Shown here: positions 13,524 to 62,778 of the stretch, piece by piece
Position numbering within the stretch: the stretch's first letter is position 1
Layout of the letters: the number at the start of each line of letters is the position of its first letter
NCBI GenBank assembly: GCA_965214945.1
Contig: OZ244029.1
Location: forward strand, 2,444,868-2,508,867
Direction of reading: 5' to 3'
Length of the DNA: 64,000 nucleotides
DNA from: Acidimicrobiales bacterium
GTDB taxonomy: Bacteria > Actinomycetota > Acidimicrobiia > Acidimicrobiales > Aldehydirespiratoraceae
The notes under the pieces: model-generated
Databases searched by the model: none
What the model was told of the DNA's origin: nothing
The model's input: only the letters and a program-made list of their open reading frames with translations
Translations under genes and position numbers: made by a program

Positions 13524-14210
13524 CTAGAGCCAACGGAGCTCTGCAGGGTCAGTGACAAGTAACTCGGGGACTCGGCTGTGGCACCGAACCCAATCTGCTG
13601 TATCAGGCGAGAGCCAGTCCAATAGCTGCAACGCGATCTCGTAATCGGCCTTGAGCCTTCGATTGCGGATGGGCTCGTGATGCGCAATCCGGTTGCGCAG
13701 CTTGCGCAACCGTTCGAGGTGAGCGTGCACCTCAGAGCGCTTCGGCGTCGGATAGAAGATGCGGCACAGATTACGCCGCCAAAGGGCTTCATCGCGGGCC
13801 TTCGCGAAGAGTCCAACCCAGAATGCGAATGACAGCTCAGCGATGATTCGTCCATCGGCTGGCTCCGCACCACGCTTCCCAATCTGGGATCGGGCCTTGG
13901 CAGCCGTGCGCGCAGCCCAAGTTCCTACCAACTCAGAGTCCAGAAGCCACGCTGCTCCATACTTTTGCATCATTCGATTATTTACAGTGTTACGCAGTGT
14001 GATCTCCACCATGTGAAGAGGCCACAAGAATGCGGCGCTGACCGCAGCGTTCCAGACGTAGAACCTCAAAGCGCGCACGACATCTCCGGTGCCAATGAGA
14101 TAAAGCTCAAATCGTTCGCCAGAGATGGCCTCTCTGAGGCTTTCAACCTCACGCGGTTGGTAAGCGAAGCGGTCTCGCCGATTCCCGTCACCCGTGCTAT
14201 CGTTGGTCAC
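13524..14210 (-). CDS. Abi_2 (AbiD/AbiF-like) abortive-infection family protein
   Basis: Motifs recognised: ISGERFELYL, ALRFYVWNAAVSAAFLWPLHMVEITLRNTV, GRIIAELSFAFWVGLF and LRKLRNRIAHHEPI. I prefer the GTG at 14210 as the start. The track start at 14375 would encode a low-complexity N-terminus and would put a perfect 13-bp palindrome inside coding sequence. The region has lower G+C than its flanks. Confidence 0.75.
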   Translation of the reverse strand: MTNDSTGDGNRRDRFAYQPREVESLREAISGERFELYLIGTGDVVRALRFYVWNAAVSAAFLWPLHMVEITLRNTVNNRMMQKYGAAWLLDSELVGTWAARTAAKARSQIGKRGAEPADGRIIAELSFAFWVGLFAKARDEALWRRNLCRIFYPTPKRSEVHAHLERLRKLRNRIAHHEPIRNRRLKADYEIALQLLDWLSPDTADWVRCHSRVPELLVTDPAELRWL

Positions 14211-14265
14211 GTGCGCCCCCTCCCCGCCTCTCCCCACGTAGGTGCATGCAGTTGGGGGCAATGCC

Positions 14266-14307
14266 CAGGGTGCTGGGGCGACGTTTTTGGACAACCCCAG
14301 CACCCTG
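14266..14307. terminator. Perfect 13-bp inverted repeat (CAGGGTGCTGGGG N16 CCCCAGCACCCTG) between the wHTH gene and the Abi gene
   Basis: The arms are at 14266-14278 and 14295-14307. The repeat lies 84 nt downstream of the wHTH stop and 56 nt upstream of my Abi start. No U-tract follows the stem on the minus strand. Confidence 0.4.
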
Positions 14308-14390
14308 CCGGTCCCAACTTCCGCTAAGTAGCGATTTTCGGGCTTCTCTGCTTGATGAACTGTTAGACGTGGCACTCATCGAGAGCGCCA

Positions 14391-22491: not shown

Positions 22492-23213
22492 ATGCCTGAC
22501 TTCGATCGATTTGAGAGACTAGTCATAGCAGCAATGACAGCTGCACCTGAAGACCTACCAGATATCCATCAAGAGGTGTCCCGAATCCCGCAGATCAACA
22601 GACCCAAATTCTATAAGGGCCTCCAATCAAACAGATTAGCAGCATGGATAGAACAAACAGATTAGCAGCATGGATAGAAACTGCGAGAGATTATCTAAAC
22701 TCACTTGGATACCCATATAATATCTTGAGATCTAATAATAACAATCAACAAGGTATGGATCTATTAGTAGTCACCACAAATCAGCAGATCGAACTAAAGA
22801 CAGGGAAAGTTACAGATGCTAATTTGGGACTAGGAACTCTCATGTGGGCATTTGATGATGCGGAGGAAAGGATAAAGTACATCTTAAATACCTCTATGAA
22901 AGAGCGCATAGAACTAGCAAACGCTAATGACTTTGGTAGAGTCATACAAAACCAGATTGAGACTATGGTAGAACTTGGCAAATTCTTCAAATCCCAGCTG
23001 ACGGAGGGAAGAGATGCCCCTCACAAACTTTCTATCCTAGCTAGATGTGTTGCTAGAGGTATCACAAGACTTGAGGCGATGAAGACGCTAGAAACCATAC
23101 CAGAGGAAAAGTGGAATGTTCCTATCATTTTACATACTGATAGGAAATTCGGCTGGGTGAAAGTGGACCGTCCGTTAGTATTCACACGGGCAATAGGTGT
23201 GTCAGTTCTGTAG
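22492..23213 (+). pseudogene. Type II restriction endonuclease (PD-(D/E)XK-like), disrupted by a 26-bp tandem duplication
   Basis: Track ORFs 22435..22665 and 22644..23213 share the peptide NRLAAWIE. Removing one 26-bp repeat copy fuses them in frame (…YKGLQSNRLAAWIETARDYLN…) into a 231-codon ORF starting at the ATG at 22492 (RBS GAGGA). GMDLLVVTTNQQIELKTGK gives a D...ExK nuclease-like motif. The gene is convergent with, and overlaps by 32 bp, an N6-adenine methyltransferase gene. The DNA is very AT-rich. Confidence 0.6.
22628..22679. repeat. Perfect tandem duplication 2 x 26 bp (CAAACAGATTAGCAGCATGGATAGAA)
   Basis: The copies are at 22628-22653 and 22654-22679 and are identical. 26 is not a multiple of 3, so the upstream frame ends at the TAG at 22663-22665. 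Confidence 0.97.
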
Positions 23214-24396
23214 CAGAAATCTGGGTGTTGCCGGTCAACATTCTGGCTCTAGCTAGTACTGACGGTGCTCGAAGAGCCTCTAGCAAGCAGTTCCATCCGA
23301 CCGACGCTTCAAACTGACCATGTCGACGGATCACGTTCACATGGTTCTCACCGACGAATTTATAATCCTCAGGAATAAGAGCACATCGCAGCTCCCCTGC
23401 GCCTACCGAGCCGGTGATTCGGTTGATCACGATAGCAGGTCCTATCAAGGCAGGCTTTGTAGTCTCAATATACTGAGGTCTCTTGTGATTCTCAGCCAGA
23501 CGGACCGTATCAGCAATGTTGTGGGCCCATATTAGCGGAACACTGCTCGACGTTCTTGTTCGCTTCAAATGCTGCTTGTTTTGATTCCATACGATTGTCC
23601 CTGTAACAGCTTCATAACCAAGTGAATACAGTGTATTATTTTTAGAGAAAGAGTCTGCCAGTGCCTCACTACTATTGGAGAATATCACACGTCGGAACCC
23701 AATATTTGGATATGATACCTCGAAACTATACTTGTCTGAGTTATCTCGACCCTTACGAAGTACTAGAAGTTGTACAGGAGTCTGAGCTTGGTCAAACAGA
23801 TCTGGTTGAGTATATATCTCAAGAAATTCGATGGCACATTGTCGAACTATATAATCCCGCAATTTGGAGAAATAAGCACCACTGTTCATCGATGGAGGAA
23901 CAACATAAGCTAGTTGACCTCCATCCCGTAAGATGTCGAGACCGGCTTGAAAAAATAGGGCAAAGATATTGGCTCGTCCGGAGATTACTTGACTAAAGTG
24001 TGCCCGTACTTCCTTCGGTAACTTGAGTTGAAAATAAGGAGGATTTCCAATGACTAGATCAAATCTATCGCCAAGGTAAGGATCGAGAGCCGATCGCTTT
24101 GTCAGCACTGCTTCTGGAACTGTATCACCTGCTACAGCCAGTATCTTAGAATCAATATCCCAGCCGTGTATCTCACACTCAGGCTCCCGATCGAGGATGG
24201 ACCGTAGAAACTCCCCTGTCCCAACCCCAGGATCTAGAACACGTATTCCAGGCCACAAGTCACATTGGTCTATCAGGCTCTCCCTAAGCACCTTCGGCGT
24301 CATGAACTGACCCAACTTCTTTCGATGAGAAATCGGGGTGTCCTCGATCCACCGGCGGGTGTTGGAAGATAGCTCCTGGTTGGCTATGCACACCAA
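23182..24396 (-). CDS. Gamma-class N6-adenine DNA methyltransferase (TaqI/Eco57I-like)
   Basis: 404 aa. Motifs: LGQFMTP (motif X), VLDPGVGTGEF (SAM-binding motif I) and IGNPPYF (catalytic NPPY motif IV), followed by a C-terminal target-recognition region. AT-rich codon usage. Confidence 0.85.
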   Translation of the reverse strand: MVCIANQELSSNTRRWIEDTPISHRKKLGQFMTPKVLRESLIDQCDLWPGIRVLDPGVGTGEFLRSILDREPECEIHGWDIDSKILAVAGDTVPEAVLTKRSALDPYLGDRFDLVIGNPPYFQLKLPKEVRAHFSQVISGRANIFALFFQAGLDILRDGGQLAYVVPPSMNSGAYFSKLRDYIVRQCAIEFLEIYTQPDLFDQAQTPVQLLVLRKGRDNSDKYSFEVSYPNIGFRRVIFSNSSEALADSFSKNNTLYSLGYEAVTGTIVWNQNKQHLKRTRTSSSVPLIWAHNIADTVRLAENHKRPQYIETTKPALIGPAIVINRITGSVGAGELRCALIPEDYKFVGENHVNVIRRHGQFEASVGWNCLLEALRAPSVLARARMLTGNTQISATELTHLLPV

Positions 24397-57065: not shown

Positions 57066-57137
57066 GCCCTCGTAGCTCAGTGGATAGAGCATCGGCCTCC
57101 GGAGCCGTGTGCGCAGGTTCGACTCCTGTCGAGGGTA
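57066..57137 (+). tRNA. tRNA-Arg (anticodon CCG)
   Basis: Manual cloverleaf: acceptor GCCCTCG/CGAGGGT, D arm GCTC-AGTGGATA-GAGC, anticodon arm TCGGC-CTCCGGA-GCCGT (anticodon CCG), 4-nt variable loop, T arm GCAGG-TTCGACT-CCTGT, discriminator A. No encoded CCA. It is divergent from argS. Confidence 0.85.
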
Positions 57138-57186
57138 CGCAGCCATATCGCCGGCAGATCATGGGCGGCGGCTCTATCATCTGACT

Positions 57187-58398
57187 ATGGCCGTCGCAGC
57201 AACGCCCGCCGCTGCCCCTGCCAAGAAGGCCCGCTGGAAGTACCAATGGAAGGAACTCCACGACGAGGTGATCACCTCGGGCCTGTGCACGGGCTGCGCC
57301 GGATGCGTGATCGCCTGCCCGCACCACGTGATCGGCTACACCCACGAGCCGGGCGCCTACAGGCCCTTCCATCTCGAGGAGGAACTCGGCGCGGACGACT
57401 GCATCCACGGCCAGAAGGGCTGCACGTCGTGCACCAGGGCGTGCCCGCGGTTTCGAATGTGGGAGCCCGAGGCCGACCGGCATCTGTTCGGGCGAGAGCG
57501 CTACGACGACGAGATATCCGGGGTGTTCTCCGATATTTTGCTGGTGCGTGCCAGCGACGATTTTGTCTACGAGATCGGCCAGGACGGCGGACTGGTGTCG
57601 GCGCTTCTCATTTGGTGCCTAGAGAACGACATCATCGACGGCGCTCTCACCAGCGGGGTTGAGCAGCTTCCTAACGGCGAGCCCGGCTGGAAAGCCTTCC
57701 CGATGGTGGCCGCCGACCGCGATGAGGTGCTGCGAGGCGCGGGCAGTCGCTACACCTATTCTGCTAACACGATCGCGTACGACGAGGCCCGGTCCCGGGG
57801 CCTGAGCCGGCTGGCTCTGGTGGGCATGAGCTGCCAGACCTCCATCGGCCCGGTGATGTGGCACCGCAAGGTGGGCAAGGTGGGCAAGGCGATCAAGCTC
57901 AACATTGGGCTGCTCTGCTCGAAGTCGTTCGACGACTCGCTGTTCGACGAGCTGTTCGAGGTGAAGTACGGGCTTCCGGCCGACAGCATCGCCAAGATGA
58001 ACATCAAGGGCGTGTTCCAGATCTGGACCAAGGACGGCCGCTACTACGAGATCAACCTGAAGGAGTGCCACGCCTGGACACGTGAGGGCTGCAACCTCTG
58101 CCCGGACTTCGCGGCCGAGCATGCCGACATCTCCACCGGCGGGATAGGTGAGCTAACCGACTGGACTCTCACGGTGGTGCGCACCGAGCTGGGCAGGGCG
58201 ATCATCGACGCCATGGCCCGAGACGGTGCCATCGTGACCCGGCCCGGCGACGACGACCCCGGTGCCATCGCCCTGATGCACAGACTTGCCGCCAAGAGCC
58301 GTAAGCGCTGGCCGGACTGGGCCGACGGCTCGGCCCGACTGGGTCTGCCACAGCGTAAGCCTCTCCAGCGGAAGTCTTTCAGCGGCCTCACGGGTTGA
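57187..58398 (+). CDS. FrhB/FdhB-family protein (coenzyme F420 hydrogenase/dehydrogenase beta-subunit-like, with an N-terminal Fe-S Cys cluster)
   Basis: I place the start at the ATG at 57187, because the track start at 57109 overlaps the tRNA. The Cys motifs are CTGCAGCVIACP and CTSCTRACP, followed by an FrhB N/C-like body (GQDGGLVSALL…GMSCQ…CPDFAAEHADIS). Confidence 0.65.
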   Translation: MAVAATPAAAPAKKARWKYQWKELHDEVITSGLCTGCAGCVIACPHHVIGYTHEPGAYRPFHLEEELGADDCIHGQKGCTSCTRACPRFRMWEPEADRHLFGRERYDDEISGVFSDILLVRASDDFVYEIGQDGGLVSALLIWCLENDIIDGALTSGVEQLPNGEPGWKAFPMVAADRDEVLRGAGSRYTYSANTIAYDEARSRGLSRLALVGMSCQTSIGPVMWHRKVGKVGKAIKLNIGLLCSKSFDDSLFDELFEVKYGLPADSIAKMNIKGVFQIWTKDGRYYEINLKECHAWTREGCNLCPDFAAEHADISTGGIGELTDWTLTVVRTELGRAIIDAMARDGAIVTRPGDDDPGAIALMHRLAAKSRKRWPDWADGSARLGLPQRKPLQRKSFSGLTG

Positions 58399-58480
58399 CG
58401 TAGGTAGTCCAGTCTTAACTCAGGTCACATCTGAGTATGAGAACGACAGCGGCAATTGAAACAAACGGAGGATGACAGCG

Positions 58481-59095
58481 ATGGATGTGGAGTTCTGGGT
58501 TGACCCGCTTTGACCGTGGTGCTGGGTGACGGCCCGTTGGGTCGTCGAAGAGGTGAAACCGACTCGAGGTCTGGACATAACTTGGCAGCCGATCAGCCTG
58601 ATGTTCAAGAACGACCCGGAGCCCGGCTCCGACTATCACACGGCGTCGTATTTCACCCACCGGCTGATGCGGGTGATGGAGTCAGCGCGGGTCGCTGAGG
58701 GCAACGACGCGGTGTTCGACTTGTACTGGGAGTTCGGACGCCGCATCCATCACGACAGAGACCGCGGCTTCGACCCGGCGGACGCGCTGGCCGCTGTCGG
58801 GATGGACACCGCCCATTCCGCCGCCTTCGGCGACGATTCCTGGGACGCGGAGATACGCACCCGGATGGACGCGGGACTGGCTCTGTGCGGCGACGATGTG
58901 GGCACGCCAATCATCGCAATCGATGACCGCAGCGGGGTGAAGCAGGCTTACTTTGGGCCTGTGATCACCCGAGTGCCGCCGCCTGAGGACTCCCTGGCCA
59001 TGTGGGACGCGCTGGTGACCATGATGAACATCGACGGCTTCTGGGAGCTCAAGCGCACCCGCACCGAGCGCCCCGAGTTCGGTTCTCGCCCTTGA
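58481..59095 (+). CDS. DsbA-fold thiol reductase of the Rv2466c (mycoredoxin-2)-like family, with an in-frame TGA at the first Cys of the CPWC motif (candidate UPWC selenoprotein, or nonsense pseudogene)
   Basis: The ATG at 58481 is preceded by GGAGGA (58467-58472, 8-nt spacer). Translation gives MDVEFWVDPL-TGA-PWCWVTARWVVEEVKP…, in frame with track ORF 58526..59095. It aligns with the Rv2466c N-terminus as I remember it (FWFDPLCPWCWITSRW). The C-terminal part, GTPIIAIDD…FGPVITRVP…WELKRTRTERPEF, also fits. Confidence 0.6.
58527..58547 (+). promoter_or_regulatory. Hairpin 14 nt downstream of the in-frame TGA (SECIS-like position)
   Basis: The stem is GACGGCC(C) / (G)GGUCGUC, 7-8 bp including one G-U pair, flanked by a possible U58527-G58547 wobble. 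The apical loop is (C)GUU(G) with G-U at +25/+26 from the U of UGA. It lies in GC-rich coding sequence, so it could be fortuitous. Confidence 0.3.
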
Positions 59096-59165: not shown

Positions 59166-59316
59166 GGCGACAACCTCTATTTGCGACAACCCCCTATTCG
59201 CGAGGGATGATTCCCTCTATTCGCGAGGGGTCATTTGCGAATCATCCCCGCGGTGTTAAGGAAGAATCCCGCGGTATTAGGGAGAAGAGACTCGCGGTGT
59301 TAGGGAAGAGGGGTGA
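59166..59316. repeat. Decaying tandem-repeat array in the convergent spacer, derived from the stop-spanning 3' end of the dehydrogenase gene, plus an embedded 10-bp perfect inverted repeat
   Basis: The units are CGCGGTGTTAAGGAAGAATCC (59249-59269), CGCGGTATTAGGGAGAAGAGACT (59270-59292) and CGCGGTGTTAGGGAAGAGGGGTGA (59293-59316, which contains the real stop TTA at 59300-59302). Upstream are the units GCGACAACCTCTATTT / GCGACAACCCCCTATTC / GCGAGGGATGATTCCCTCTATTC / GCGAGGGGTCATTT / GCGAATCATCCCC. The inverted repeat is GGGATGATTC (59204-59213) / GAATCATCCC (59239-59248). Confidence 0.85.
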
Positions 59317-61977: not shown

Positions 61978-62778
61978 TCAGGCTAGCGGCTCAGCCTCAG
62001 CGCCCAATTCACGTGTACGGGTGAGCACGGCGTCGAGCATGGGCTCGGTGAGACGGCCGGTGAAGGTGTTCTGCTGGCTCACGTGATAGCTGCTGACCAG
62101 CGTCCGGCCGCCTCGCAACGGCGCCTCGACGCCGTGGCCGAACTTCGGGCAGCGCCCGTCGGCCAGCATCCTCCACATCACCTGATGCGCGAAGCCGCCG
62201 AGTGCCAGCACCACCCGCACGCCTGCCAACGTTTCCAGCTCGCGCCGCAGGTATCCCACGCAGGCGTCGCGCTCAGCGGCGGTGGGCCGGTTGCCAGGCG
62301 GCGCGCACTTCACCGGCGCAGAGATCCAGGCGCCGTGCAACTCCAAGCCGTCGCCTCGGCGCACTGATGTGGGCTGGCTGGCATAGCCGGCTCGGTGCAG
62401 CGCGGCATAGAGCCAGTCACCGGAGCGGTCTCCTGTGAACATTCGACCCGTGCGGTTGGCGCCGTGAGCGGCCGGCGCTAGTCCCACTACCAGCAGGTGG
62501 GCGTCCGGGTCGCCGAAGCCGGGCACGCCTCGTGCCCAGTAGACGTCGTCGCGGTAGGCGGCGCGCTTTTGGCGCCCTACCCGCTCGCGCCATTCCACGA
62601 GACGAGGGCATACCCGGCACGATGCCACCTCAGCCGCTATCAGATCAAGCGAGCGGCGTTTCGGCCCGGACGCACCGCTGCGCCCGCGGCCGGAGAACTC
62701 CACAGCGTTTAGGCTACCTTGGCGCGAGTTTATGAACCCGAGGACCGCAGTGGGCTCCGCCGATCCCAAAGCCCCCAC
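61978..62778 (-). CDS. udgB: Uracil-DNA glycosylase family 5 (UdgB-like)
   Basis: CRVCPRLVEWRE and GDPDAHLLVVGLAPAAHGANRTGRMFTGD match the family 4/5 UDG motifs (GLAPA variant). The N-terminal 47 nt overlap the divergent neighbour, so one of the two starts is probably internal. Confidence 0.75.
   Translation of the reverse strand: MGALGSAEPTAVLGFINSRQGSLNAVEFSGRGRSGASGPKRRSLDLIAAEVASCRVCPRLVEWRERVGRQKRAAYRDDVYWARGVPGFGDPDAHLLVVGLAPAAHGANRTGRMFTGDRSGDWLYAALHRAGYASQPTSVRRGDGLELHGAWISAPVKCAPPGNRPTAAERDACVGYLRRELETLAGVRVVLALGGFAHQVMWRMLADGRCPKFGHGVEAPLRGGRTLVSSYHVSQQNTFTGRLTEPMLDAVLTRTRELGAEAEPLA

Follow-up and report, generated by a model that had tools for sequence, protein, structure and literature searches.

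Whether the TGA in the eleventh codon of a reductase gene ends translation or is read as selenocysteine (Sec) is the question raised by positions 58481–59095 of the DNA analysed here, a stretch of 64,000 nucleotides (the window) from an Acidimicrobiales bacterium (GenBank assembly GCA_965214945.1, contig OZ244029.1). The frame consists of 10 sense codons, the TGA at 58511–58513, 193 sense codons and a stop at 59093–59095 (205 codons including both TGAs; 204 residues). It contains no further stops or frameshifts. The gene's own terminal stop is TGA as well, and TGA is otherwise an ordinary stop in this DNA. Among bacterial selenoproteins, the commonest are those in which Sec takes the place of the attacking Cys in a CxxC redox motif. 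Comparison with relatives indicates that the locus is very probably a gene of this kind, encoding a UxxC selenoprotein with a genuine Sec codon and a bacterial selenocysteine insertion sequence (SECIS) element.

Protein family and conservation of the UGA

Profile and homology searches were performed with the window protein in which Cys had been written at the TGA. The PF22234 profile (Rv2466c-like) gave 131 bits against a cut-off of 27, with residues 10–192 covering profile positions 1–180 of 180, and PF01323 (DSBA) gave 31.3 bits against a cut-off of 25.6. Among proteins of known structure, Rv2466c of M. tuberculosis (PDB 4ZIL, 4NXI, 5XUR and 4WKW) was matched with E = 4.5e-36, residues 4–201 aligning with 12–207. 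The block EFWVDPL-x-PWCW aligns with DFWFDPLCPWCW of Rv2466c, and the TGA therefore falls on the first Cys of CPWC; the CPWC motif of the family is present as the variant U-P-W-C, its first Cys being the UGA codon. The alignment and the two profile scores agree with the original prediction, which had placed the TGA at the first (attacking) Cys of the CxxC motif of a DsbA-fold family. The product should be a cytoplasmic thiol/selenol oxidoreductase of 204 residues, predicted to belong to the Rv2466c-like branch of the DsbA fold. Rv2466c itself is described as a mycothiol-dependent reductase and prodrug activator.

A protein search returned 1864 relatives, of which the best 120 clusters were examined. 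The UGA position was aligned with Cys in 64 of these, all of them full-length proteins with a CP(W/F/Y)C motif. Another 55 were products of 189 amino acids (aa) beginning with (M/V)TARW, that is, at the GTG of codon 16 just past the TGA, and no full-length record containing U was found among the 120. Annotation names of the TGA-type orthologues in this set include 'Mycothiol-dependent nitroreductase Rv2466c', 'disulfide bond formation protein DsbA' and plain 'hypothetical protein'.

Conservation of the codon was assessed at 80 DNA loci, one genome per GTDB species, nearly all titled as Acidimicrobiia, Acidimicrobiales, Aldehydirespiratoraceae or Actinomycetota metagenome-assembled genomes (MAGs). 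TGA occupies this codon in 79 of the 80, and TGT in one (L075). Complete chromosomes with the TGA form include OZ244902.1, OY763490.2, OZ220727.1, OZ243946.1 and OZ244836.1. The in-frame peptide preceding it, M-D-I/V-E-F-W-V/I-D-P-I/L, is conserved in the 80 genomes, in which the distance from ATG to TGA is fixed at 30 nucleotides (nt) and the synonymous sites of the peptide drift (all four CCN codons, GAC/GAT, GAG/GAA). Downstream codons, too, show purifying selection on the peptide while synonymous change is free outside the hairpin. Conservation of the peptide together with this synonymous drift means that both sides of the TGA are translated in one frame. Metagenome contigs were scanned with a peptide-only pattern, F-W-x-D-P-x-(TGA/TGC/TGT)-P-W-C-W, and the first 120 matches listed comprised 33 with TGA and 87 with TGC or TGT. 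The TGA is thus not a strain-specific single-nucleotide polymorphism or a read error, being present in 79 of the 80 genomes and in 33 of these first 120 metagenome matches.

The start of the gene is less uniform. Of 109 TGA-type relatives, 51 have a Shine-Dalgarno-like tetramer no more than 20 nt upstream of codon −10, and in some relatives the start codon is placed further upstream. For the window itself, direct reading and translation reproduced what had been proposed from the sequence: a strong ribosome-binding site (GGAGGA) with an 8-nt spacer before ATG 58481, ten sense codons (MDVEFWVDPL) ahead of the TGA and 193 codons after it in the same frame. The description of the genome as being of actinobacterial type was likewise correct, the relatives being titled almost without exception as Acidimicrobiia or Actinomycetota MAGs.

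A covarying hairpin downstream of the UGA

Folding of the 66 nt from the TGA to minimum free energy (MFE) gave a 9-bp stem, including one terminal U-G pair. The stem begins 13–14 nt past the UGA and measures 8–9 bp, and its GUU loop lies 25 nt from the U of the UGA; the start about 14 nt past the TGA and the G and U in an apical loop about 25 nt away are as originally described. The bSECISearch criteria are 16–37 nt from the UGA to the loop and a loop of 3–14 nt. In its geometry the putative element matches the bacterial SECIS element used in selenoprotein surveys (PMC1088965). No Rfam family matched at the hairpin locus.

Codon usage in the 80 genomes separates the hairpin from the rest of the gene. 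Six fourfold-degenerate codons within it are nearly frozen (Val16 GTG, Thr17 ACG, Ala18 GCC, Arg19 CGT, Val21 GTC and Val22 GTC), with codon entropies of 0.10–0.39 bits, as compared to 0.88–1.74 bits for 16 fourfold-degenerate codons outside the hairpin; the two ranges do not overlap. The third positions of five of the frozen codons are in the stem, and that of Arg19 is in the loop. CGT is a disfavoured Arg codon in this G+C-rich DNA and yet is fixed in 78 of the 80 genomes, where it supplies the GUU of the loop. In the loop, which is GUU or, rarely, GGU, the first base is always G and the last always U.

Covariation was determined for 74 distinct TGA sequences from genomes and metagenomes, in which 99.5% of the stem cells were paired. 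Pair 21–33, formed by the third bases of Thr17 and Val21, occurred as GC (66), AU (2), CG (2), GU (2) and UA (1); pair 18–36, of the third bases of Val16 and Val22, as GC (65), AU (5) and GU (4); and pair 24–30, of the third bases of Ala18 and Trp20, as CG (69) and UG (5). The number of double-change cells was 10, against 0.9 ± 0.9 after shuffling, and none of 500 shuffles reached 10. Sliding the partner column destroyed the pairing, and RNAalifold independently yielded the same helix. Since the covarying sites are synonymous, the protein sequence cannot account for the covariation. The hairpin was also found in all 32 evaluable metagenome TGA forms, with energies of −9 to −17 kcal/mol.

The Cys forms provide the complementary comparison. 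Four syntenic Cys orthologues (L075, L081, L082 and L089) use GTA/GTC, ACA, GCA/GCT, CGC and ATT/GTG at the hairpin codons; their sequences fold at −2.5 to −8.8 kcal/mol, as against about −14 kcal/mol for the Sec forms, and the hairpin is lost. By protein distance, the closest relatives of one of them (L081) are Sec forms. Sec and Cys forms interchange within the orthologous group, as is usual in selenoprotein families. The two also differ in the codon that precedes the variable position. Of 109 Sec forms, 104 have U (85) or A (19) as the last base of this codon, supplied by the rare codons ATT, CTT and ATA (CTT at 58508–58510 in the window); of 93 Cys forms, 76 have G or C there. A codon context with U or A next to the UGA on its 5' side thus seems to be a preference specific to the Sec forms.

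Judged from these comparisons, the hairpin is under selection as RNA. Its conservation beyond the demands of the amino-acid sequence, on which the original prediction depended, is evident from the third-position covariation, the frozen stem codons and the loss of the hairpin in the syntenic Cys orthologues; the last of these, together with the covariation and the conservation of the TGA, also supports the candidate UxxC selenoprotein as first proposed.

Proposed selenocysteine insertion and competing explanations

In the mechanism that we propose, the ribosome would initiate at ATG 58481 and translate ten codons. At the UGA at 58511 the hairpin (58527–58547, loop GUU) would act as a SECIS element and recruit SelB-GTP-Sec-tRNA(Sec), so that Sec is inserted and translation does not terminate. 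In the finished enzyme the selenolate would attack the substrate, which by analogy with Rv2466c may be a mycothiol mixed disulfide, or an oxidised or nitro compound, and Cys14 would resolve the resulting selenenylsulfide. The electrons for re-reduction could come from a low-molecular-weight thiol system or else from the FrhB-like Fe-S/F420-type protein encoded upstream, probably in the same operon. The sequences themselves show the conserved UGA, the translation of its two flanks in a single frame, an RNA hairpin under selection at SECIS geometry and the homology to Rv2466c; we infer the insertion of Sec, the substrate and the reductant.

Several observations weigh against Sec insertion and have to be set beside the evidence given above. 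The fold energy of the single sequence is no better than that of dinucleotide shuffles (z = −0.72), and because this is so in one G+C-rich sequence, the significance of the hairpin rests on comparative evidence and not on folding energy. Part of the hairpin is explained by the peptide VTARWVV, which tends towards a palindrome when written in G+C-rich codons, and a similar stem can be formed by two Cys forms of high GC content (L086 and L088) whose gene neighbourhood is different; what carries the argument is therefore the covariation and the freezing specific to Sec forms, and not the existence of a stem. No NCBIfam model matches the window protein, hence no NCBIfam selenoprotein model covers it. 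Finally, selA, selB, selD and tRNA-Sec were not found in the 64-kb window or in 2.2 Mb of the relatives' flanks, the only sequence searched for them.

The search for the machinery was performed by tblastn on the window and all loci, using E. coli SelA, SelB and SelD sequences as queries, and gave no hits. For the window, none of selA, selB and selD was found either in the translations of open reading frames (ORFs) that were read or in spot checks against Pfam and NCBIfam. The negative tblastn result says only that the Sec machinery is not linked to the gene, and such linkage is not expected. When the window and the 2.2 Mb of flanks were scanned heuristically for further in-frame TGAs that combine a redox motif, coding-like G+C content at third codon positions and a hairpin, this gene alone was returned, and a tblastn search of ORFs against 1.7 Mb for Sec/Cys pairs was swamped by the off-frame alignments typical of G+C-rich DNA. 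From the literature, selA, selB, selC and selD have been reported in all 84 complete genomes of Actinomarina, which belongs to another order of Acidimicrobiia (bioRxiv 10.64898/2026.04.03.716425), and most bins of sponge symbionts, from various phyla, are reported to have SelA together with SelB (PMC5649159). These reports provide only indirect support for Sec machinery in the lineage.

ARAGORN called a 'tRNA-SeC (tca)' at 62276–62355 on the plus strand, and this call was rejected as a false positive. The 80-nt sequence has no Rfam match to tRNA or tRNA-Sec at E ≤ 10, lies antisense within a UDG-family gene (61978–62778, minus strand; PF03167, 84 bits) and has no equivalent call in any relative. 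Such a false tRNA-SeC could mislead searches for Sec machinery near the selenoprotein gene.

Sequence data of this kind reveal recoding and a selected hairpin but do not identify the inserted residue. In principle, the UGA could be recoded to a residue other than Sec, either to Cys, by a SelB-delivered, tRNA-Sec-like tRNA(Cys) with a UCA anticodon, or to Trp or Cys by hairpin-stimulated near-cognate read-through. A tRNA-Sec-like tRNA(Cys) reading UGA has been described in some uncultured bacteria. We nevertheless consider such recoding very unlikely at this locus. The geometry of the hairpin is that of a SECIS element, and the G of its loop is conserved. A one-base change to TGY would give Cys, as in the orthologues L075, L081 and L082; that a costly UGA has been kept over the long term therefore points to a residue that is not otherwise encodable. 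Moreover, the UGA is at a redox-active Cys position, where Sec-for-Cys is the rule in known UxxC selenoproteins (PMC1088965).

The annotated products suggest another possibility, namely that the real protein is the 189-aa product starting at GTG 58526, with the 45 nt upstream as an untranslated leader and the hairpin as a translational or regulatory element. The 55 database clusters of this length are annotated in this way, and the GTG is invariant. However, the codon is merely Val16 of a conserved CWVTARW, which is present in the Cys forms as well; no Shine-Dalgarno-like sequence precedes it; and the hairpin, which starts at its middle base (58527), would occlude it. The first β-strand of the Rv2466c fold and the entire UPWC/CPWC motif would be missing from the product. 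The supposed leader, moreover, encodes a peptide whose amino acids are conserved while its synonymous sites drift, and its ATG keeps a constant distance of 30 nt to the TGA. Initiation at the GTG is in our view highly improbable. The probability that the TGA is a nonsense mutation, or a sequencing or assembly error, in a pseudogene is negligible: one in-frame stop in one window would on its own be compatible with this alternative, which the original prediction had kept, but it is excluded by the recurrence of the TGA in 79 of the 80 species-level genomes, each assembled independently, and in numerous metagenome contigs, and it conflicts with the purifying selection on the ten upstream codons in frame and with the lack of more stops or frameshifts.

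Gene neighbourhood and relation to known systems

Table 1. Positions of the predicted selenoprotein gene, its elements and the upstream neighbour in the window.
Feature	Position	Strand	Description	Basis
FrhB-like gene	57187–58398	+	4Fe-4S dicluster, FrhB_FdhB_N and FrhB_FdhB_C domains; coenzyme F420 hydrogenase/dehydrogenase beta-subunit family	Pfam
Shine-Dalgarno-like GGAGGA	58467–58472	+	8-nt spacer to ATG 58481	Read from sequence
Full predicted selenoprotein ORF	58481–59095	+	M1...U11-P-W-C14...P204 and stop; Rv2466c-like DsbA-fold reductase	Translation, PF22234, PDB match
Ten codons MDVEFWVDPL	58481–58510	+	First β-strand region of the fold	In frame with downstream part; aligns to DFWFDPL of Rv2466c
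In-frame UGA	58511–58513	+	Residue 11, putatively read as Sec	Attacking-Cys position of CxxC
Cys14 (TGC)	58520–58522	+	Resolving Cys of U-P-W-C	TGC or TGT in 80/80 genomes
Val16 (GTG)	58526–58528	+	False start used by gene callers	58526–59095 listed as 189-aa ORF
SECIS-like hairpin	58527–58547	+	Stem 58527–58535/58539–58547; core of 8 bp, 58528–58546; loop GUU 58536–58538	MFE fold, covariation, RNAalifold

The gene stands in a conserved order, with rho, thrC, hom, lysA and argS upstream and UDG, an MSMEG_4193-family phosphomutase and TIGR03847/DUF3090 downstream. A contig titled 'uncultured Gammaproteobacteria bacterium' (L024, CAXMSE010000039.1) combines the TGA form with the Acidimicrobiia order of FrhB-like gene, Sec reductase, UDG, phosphomutase and DUF3090; it is probably mis-binned or mislabelled. 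The phosphomutase and TIGR03847/DUF3090 genes, 3.6 kb downstream of the reductase gene, are the sole hint of a link to mycothiol. In Actinobacteria, genes of these two families usually adjoin mshC.

In 69 of 81 sequences the FrhB-like gene (Table 1) is the immediate upstream neighbour of the reductase gene, with the same orientation, and NCBIfam frhB-type models match its product under their equivalog cut-offs. The gap to the reductase gene has a median of 34 nt, is often 4–8 nt and is 0 nt in L082, and no terminator-like site was found between the two genes in the window. They probably form one operon. The four syntenic Cys orthologues have the FrhB-like neighbour in common; for the other 90 Cys forms no FrhB-like gene was present in the DNA fetched, many of those contigs being short. 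The longest FrhB-like ORF begins at GTG 57109, inside a tRNA-Arg (CCG) gene (57066–57138, plus strand; Rfam, 63 bits), and because of this overlap the true start is probably ATG 57187.

From its position, the FrhB-like protein is a plausible electron donor of the reductase, and its conservation provides a concrete hypothesis for the source of electrons. On a bolder reading, the conserved gene pair would be an operon for a redox module of Acidimicrobiia that has so far escaped description. The selenol/thiol reductase would be re-reduced directly by a dehydrogenase dependent on deazaflavin or Fe-S, as an alternative to mycothiol/mycoredoxin or thioredoxin reductase. We regard this as speculative and rather unlikely. 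If it were true, the two-gene module and the U or A before the UGA would together mark a lineage-wide selenoprotein system that current annotation pipelines have overlooked entirely.

Other features of the window were noted in passing. The spacer between the convergent selenoprotein and dehydrogenase genes (59174–59306) has a lower GC content and carries direct repeats about 23 nt apart (CCYCTATTYGCGA, three copies, and GAAGAATCCCGCGGTATTAGGGA, three copies) as well as a perfect 10-nt inverted repeat (59204–59213/59239–59248). Stretches of lower G+C content (0.58–0.63, versus about 0.67 elsewhere) occur at about 13.5–15.2 kb and 20–24.4 kb. They contain a weak Abi_2-like ORF (13524–14375), an Eco57I/N6-type DNA methylase (23182–24396) and ORFs without a family match, and are likely to be an acquired island or defence genes.

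The Sargasso Sea survey of 2005 (PMC1088965) already included DsbA-like UxxC selenoproteins, and a review of 2026 (PMC13188914) lists a 'DsbA-like protein form 1' under PF01323. The kind of selenoprotein is thus already known. In the literature searched there was no link of Rv2466c with Sec, and Sec in connection with Acidimicrobiia or Acidimicrobiales appeared only in one 2026 preprint on Actinomarinales and in a passing remark in a study of sponge symbionts. Within the sources searched, the link between Rv2466c and Sec, the occurrence in Acidimicrobiia and the missing database records look new or unrecorded. Selenium use in this lineage is almost undescribed, and an orthologous group that spans many Acidimicrobiia genomes (MAGs of marine, sponge-associated, sediment and soil origin) figures in public databases as a 189-aa fragment without its catalytic motif.

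With the published DsbA-like UxxC selenoproteins the window protein shares Sec at the first position of UxxC, a DSBA domain and, right after the UGA, a stem-loop whose small apical loop contains a G. The published family is broad (COG2761/PF01323), and the window gene was set beside the family of AACY01178397 and NIP15863.1 by description only. Like the SECIS element of E. coli fdhF, the hairpin lies inside the coding sequence 13–14 nt past the UGA, with a loop containing G and U 25 nt away; as in other bacterial SECIS elements, the stem is maintained by compensatory change. It differs from the fdhF element in that the sequence is unrelated, the loop is of 3 nt and there is no obvious bulged U, and binding of SelB is putative. 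A hairpin that covaries at synonymous sites is a well-supported example of a bacterial SECIS element and may serve in the training of predictors, which do poorly on such elements.

With Rv2466c the window protein has in common full-length homology, the DsbA-type fold family, the N-terminal FW.DPLCPWCW block and the C-terminal ELKRTRTE block. It differs in that the attacking Cys is a UGA codon followed by a SECIS-type hairpin, and the overall divergence is considerable. The genetic context is also different, the window gene being located downstream of an FrhB-like Fe-S/F420-family gene in Acidimicrobiia, an arrangement not seen in the other CPWC-type Cys forms fetched. The gene would represent a natural Sec version of Rv2466c, a member of a drug-relevant enzyme family, and the presence of Sec and Cys orthologues in the same neighbourhood should allow a clean comparison of Sec and Cys chemistry within this fold.

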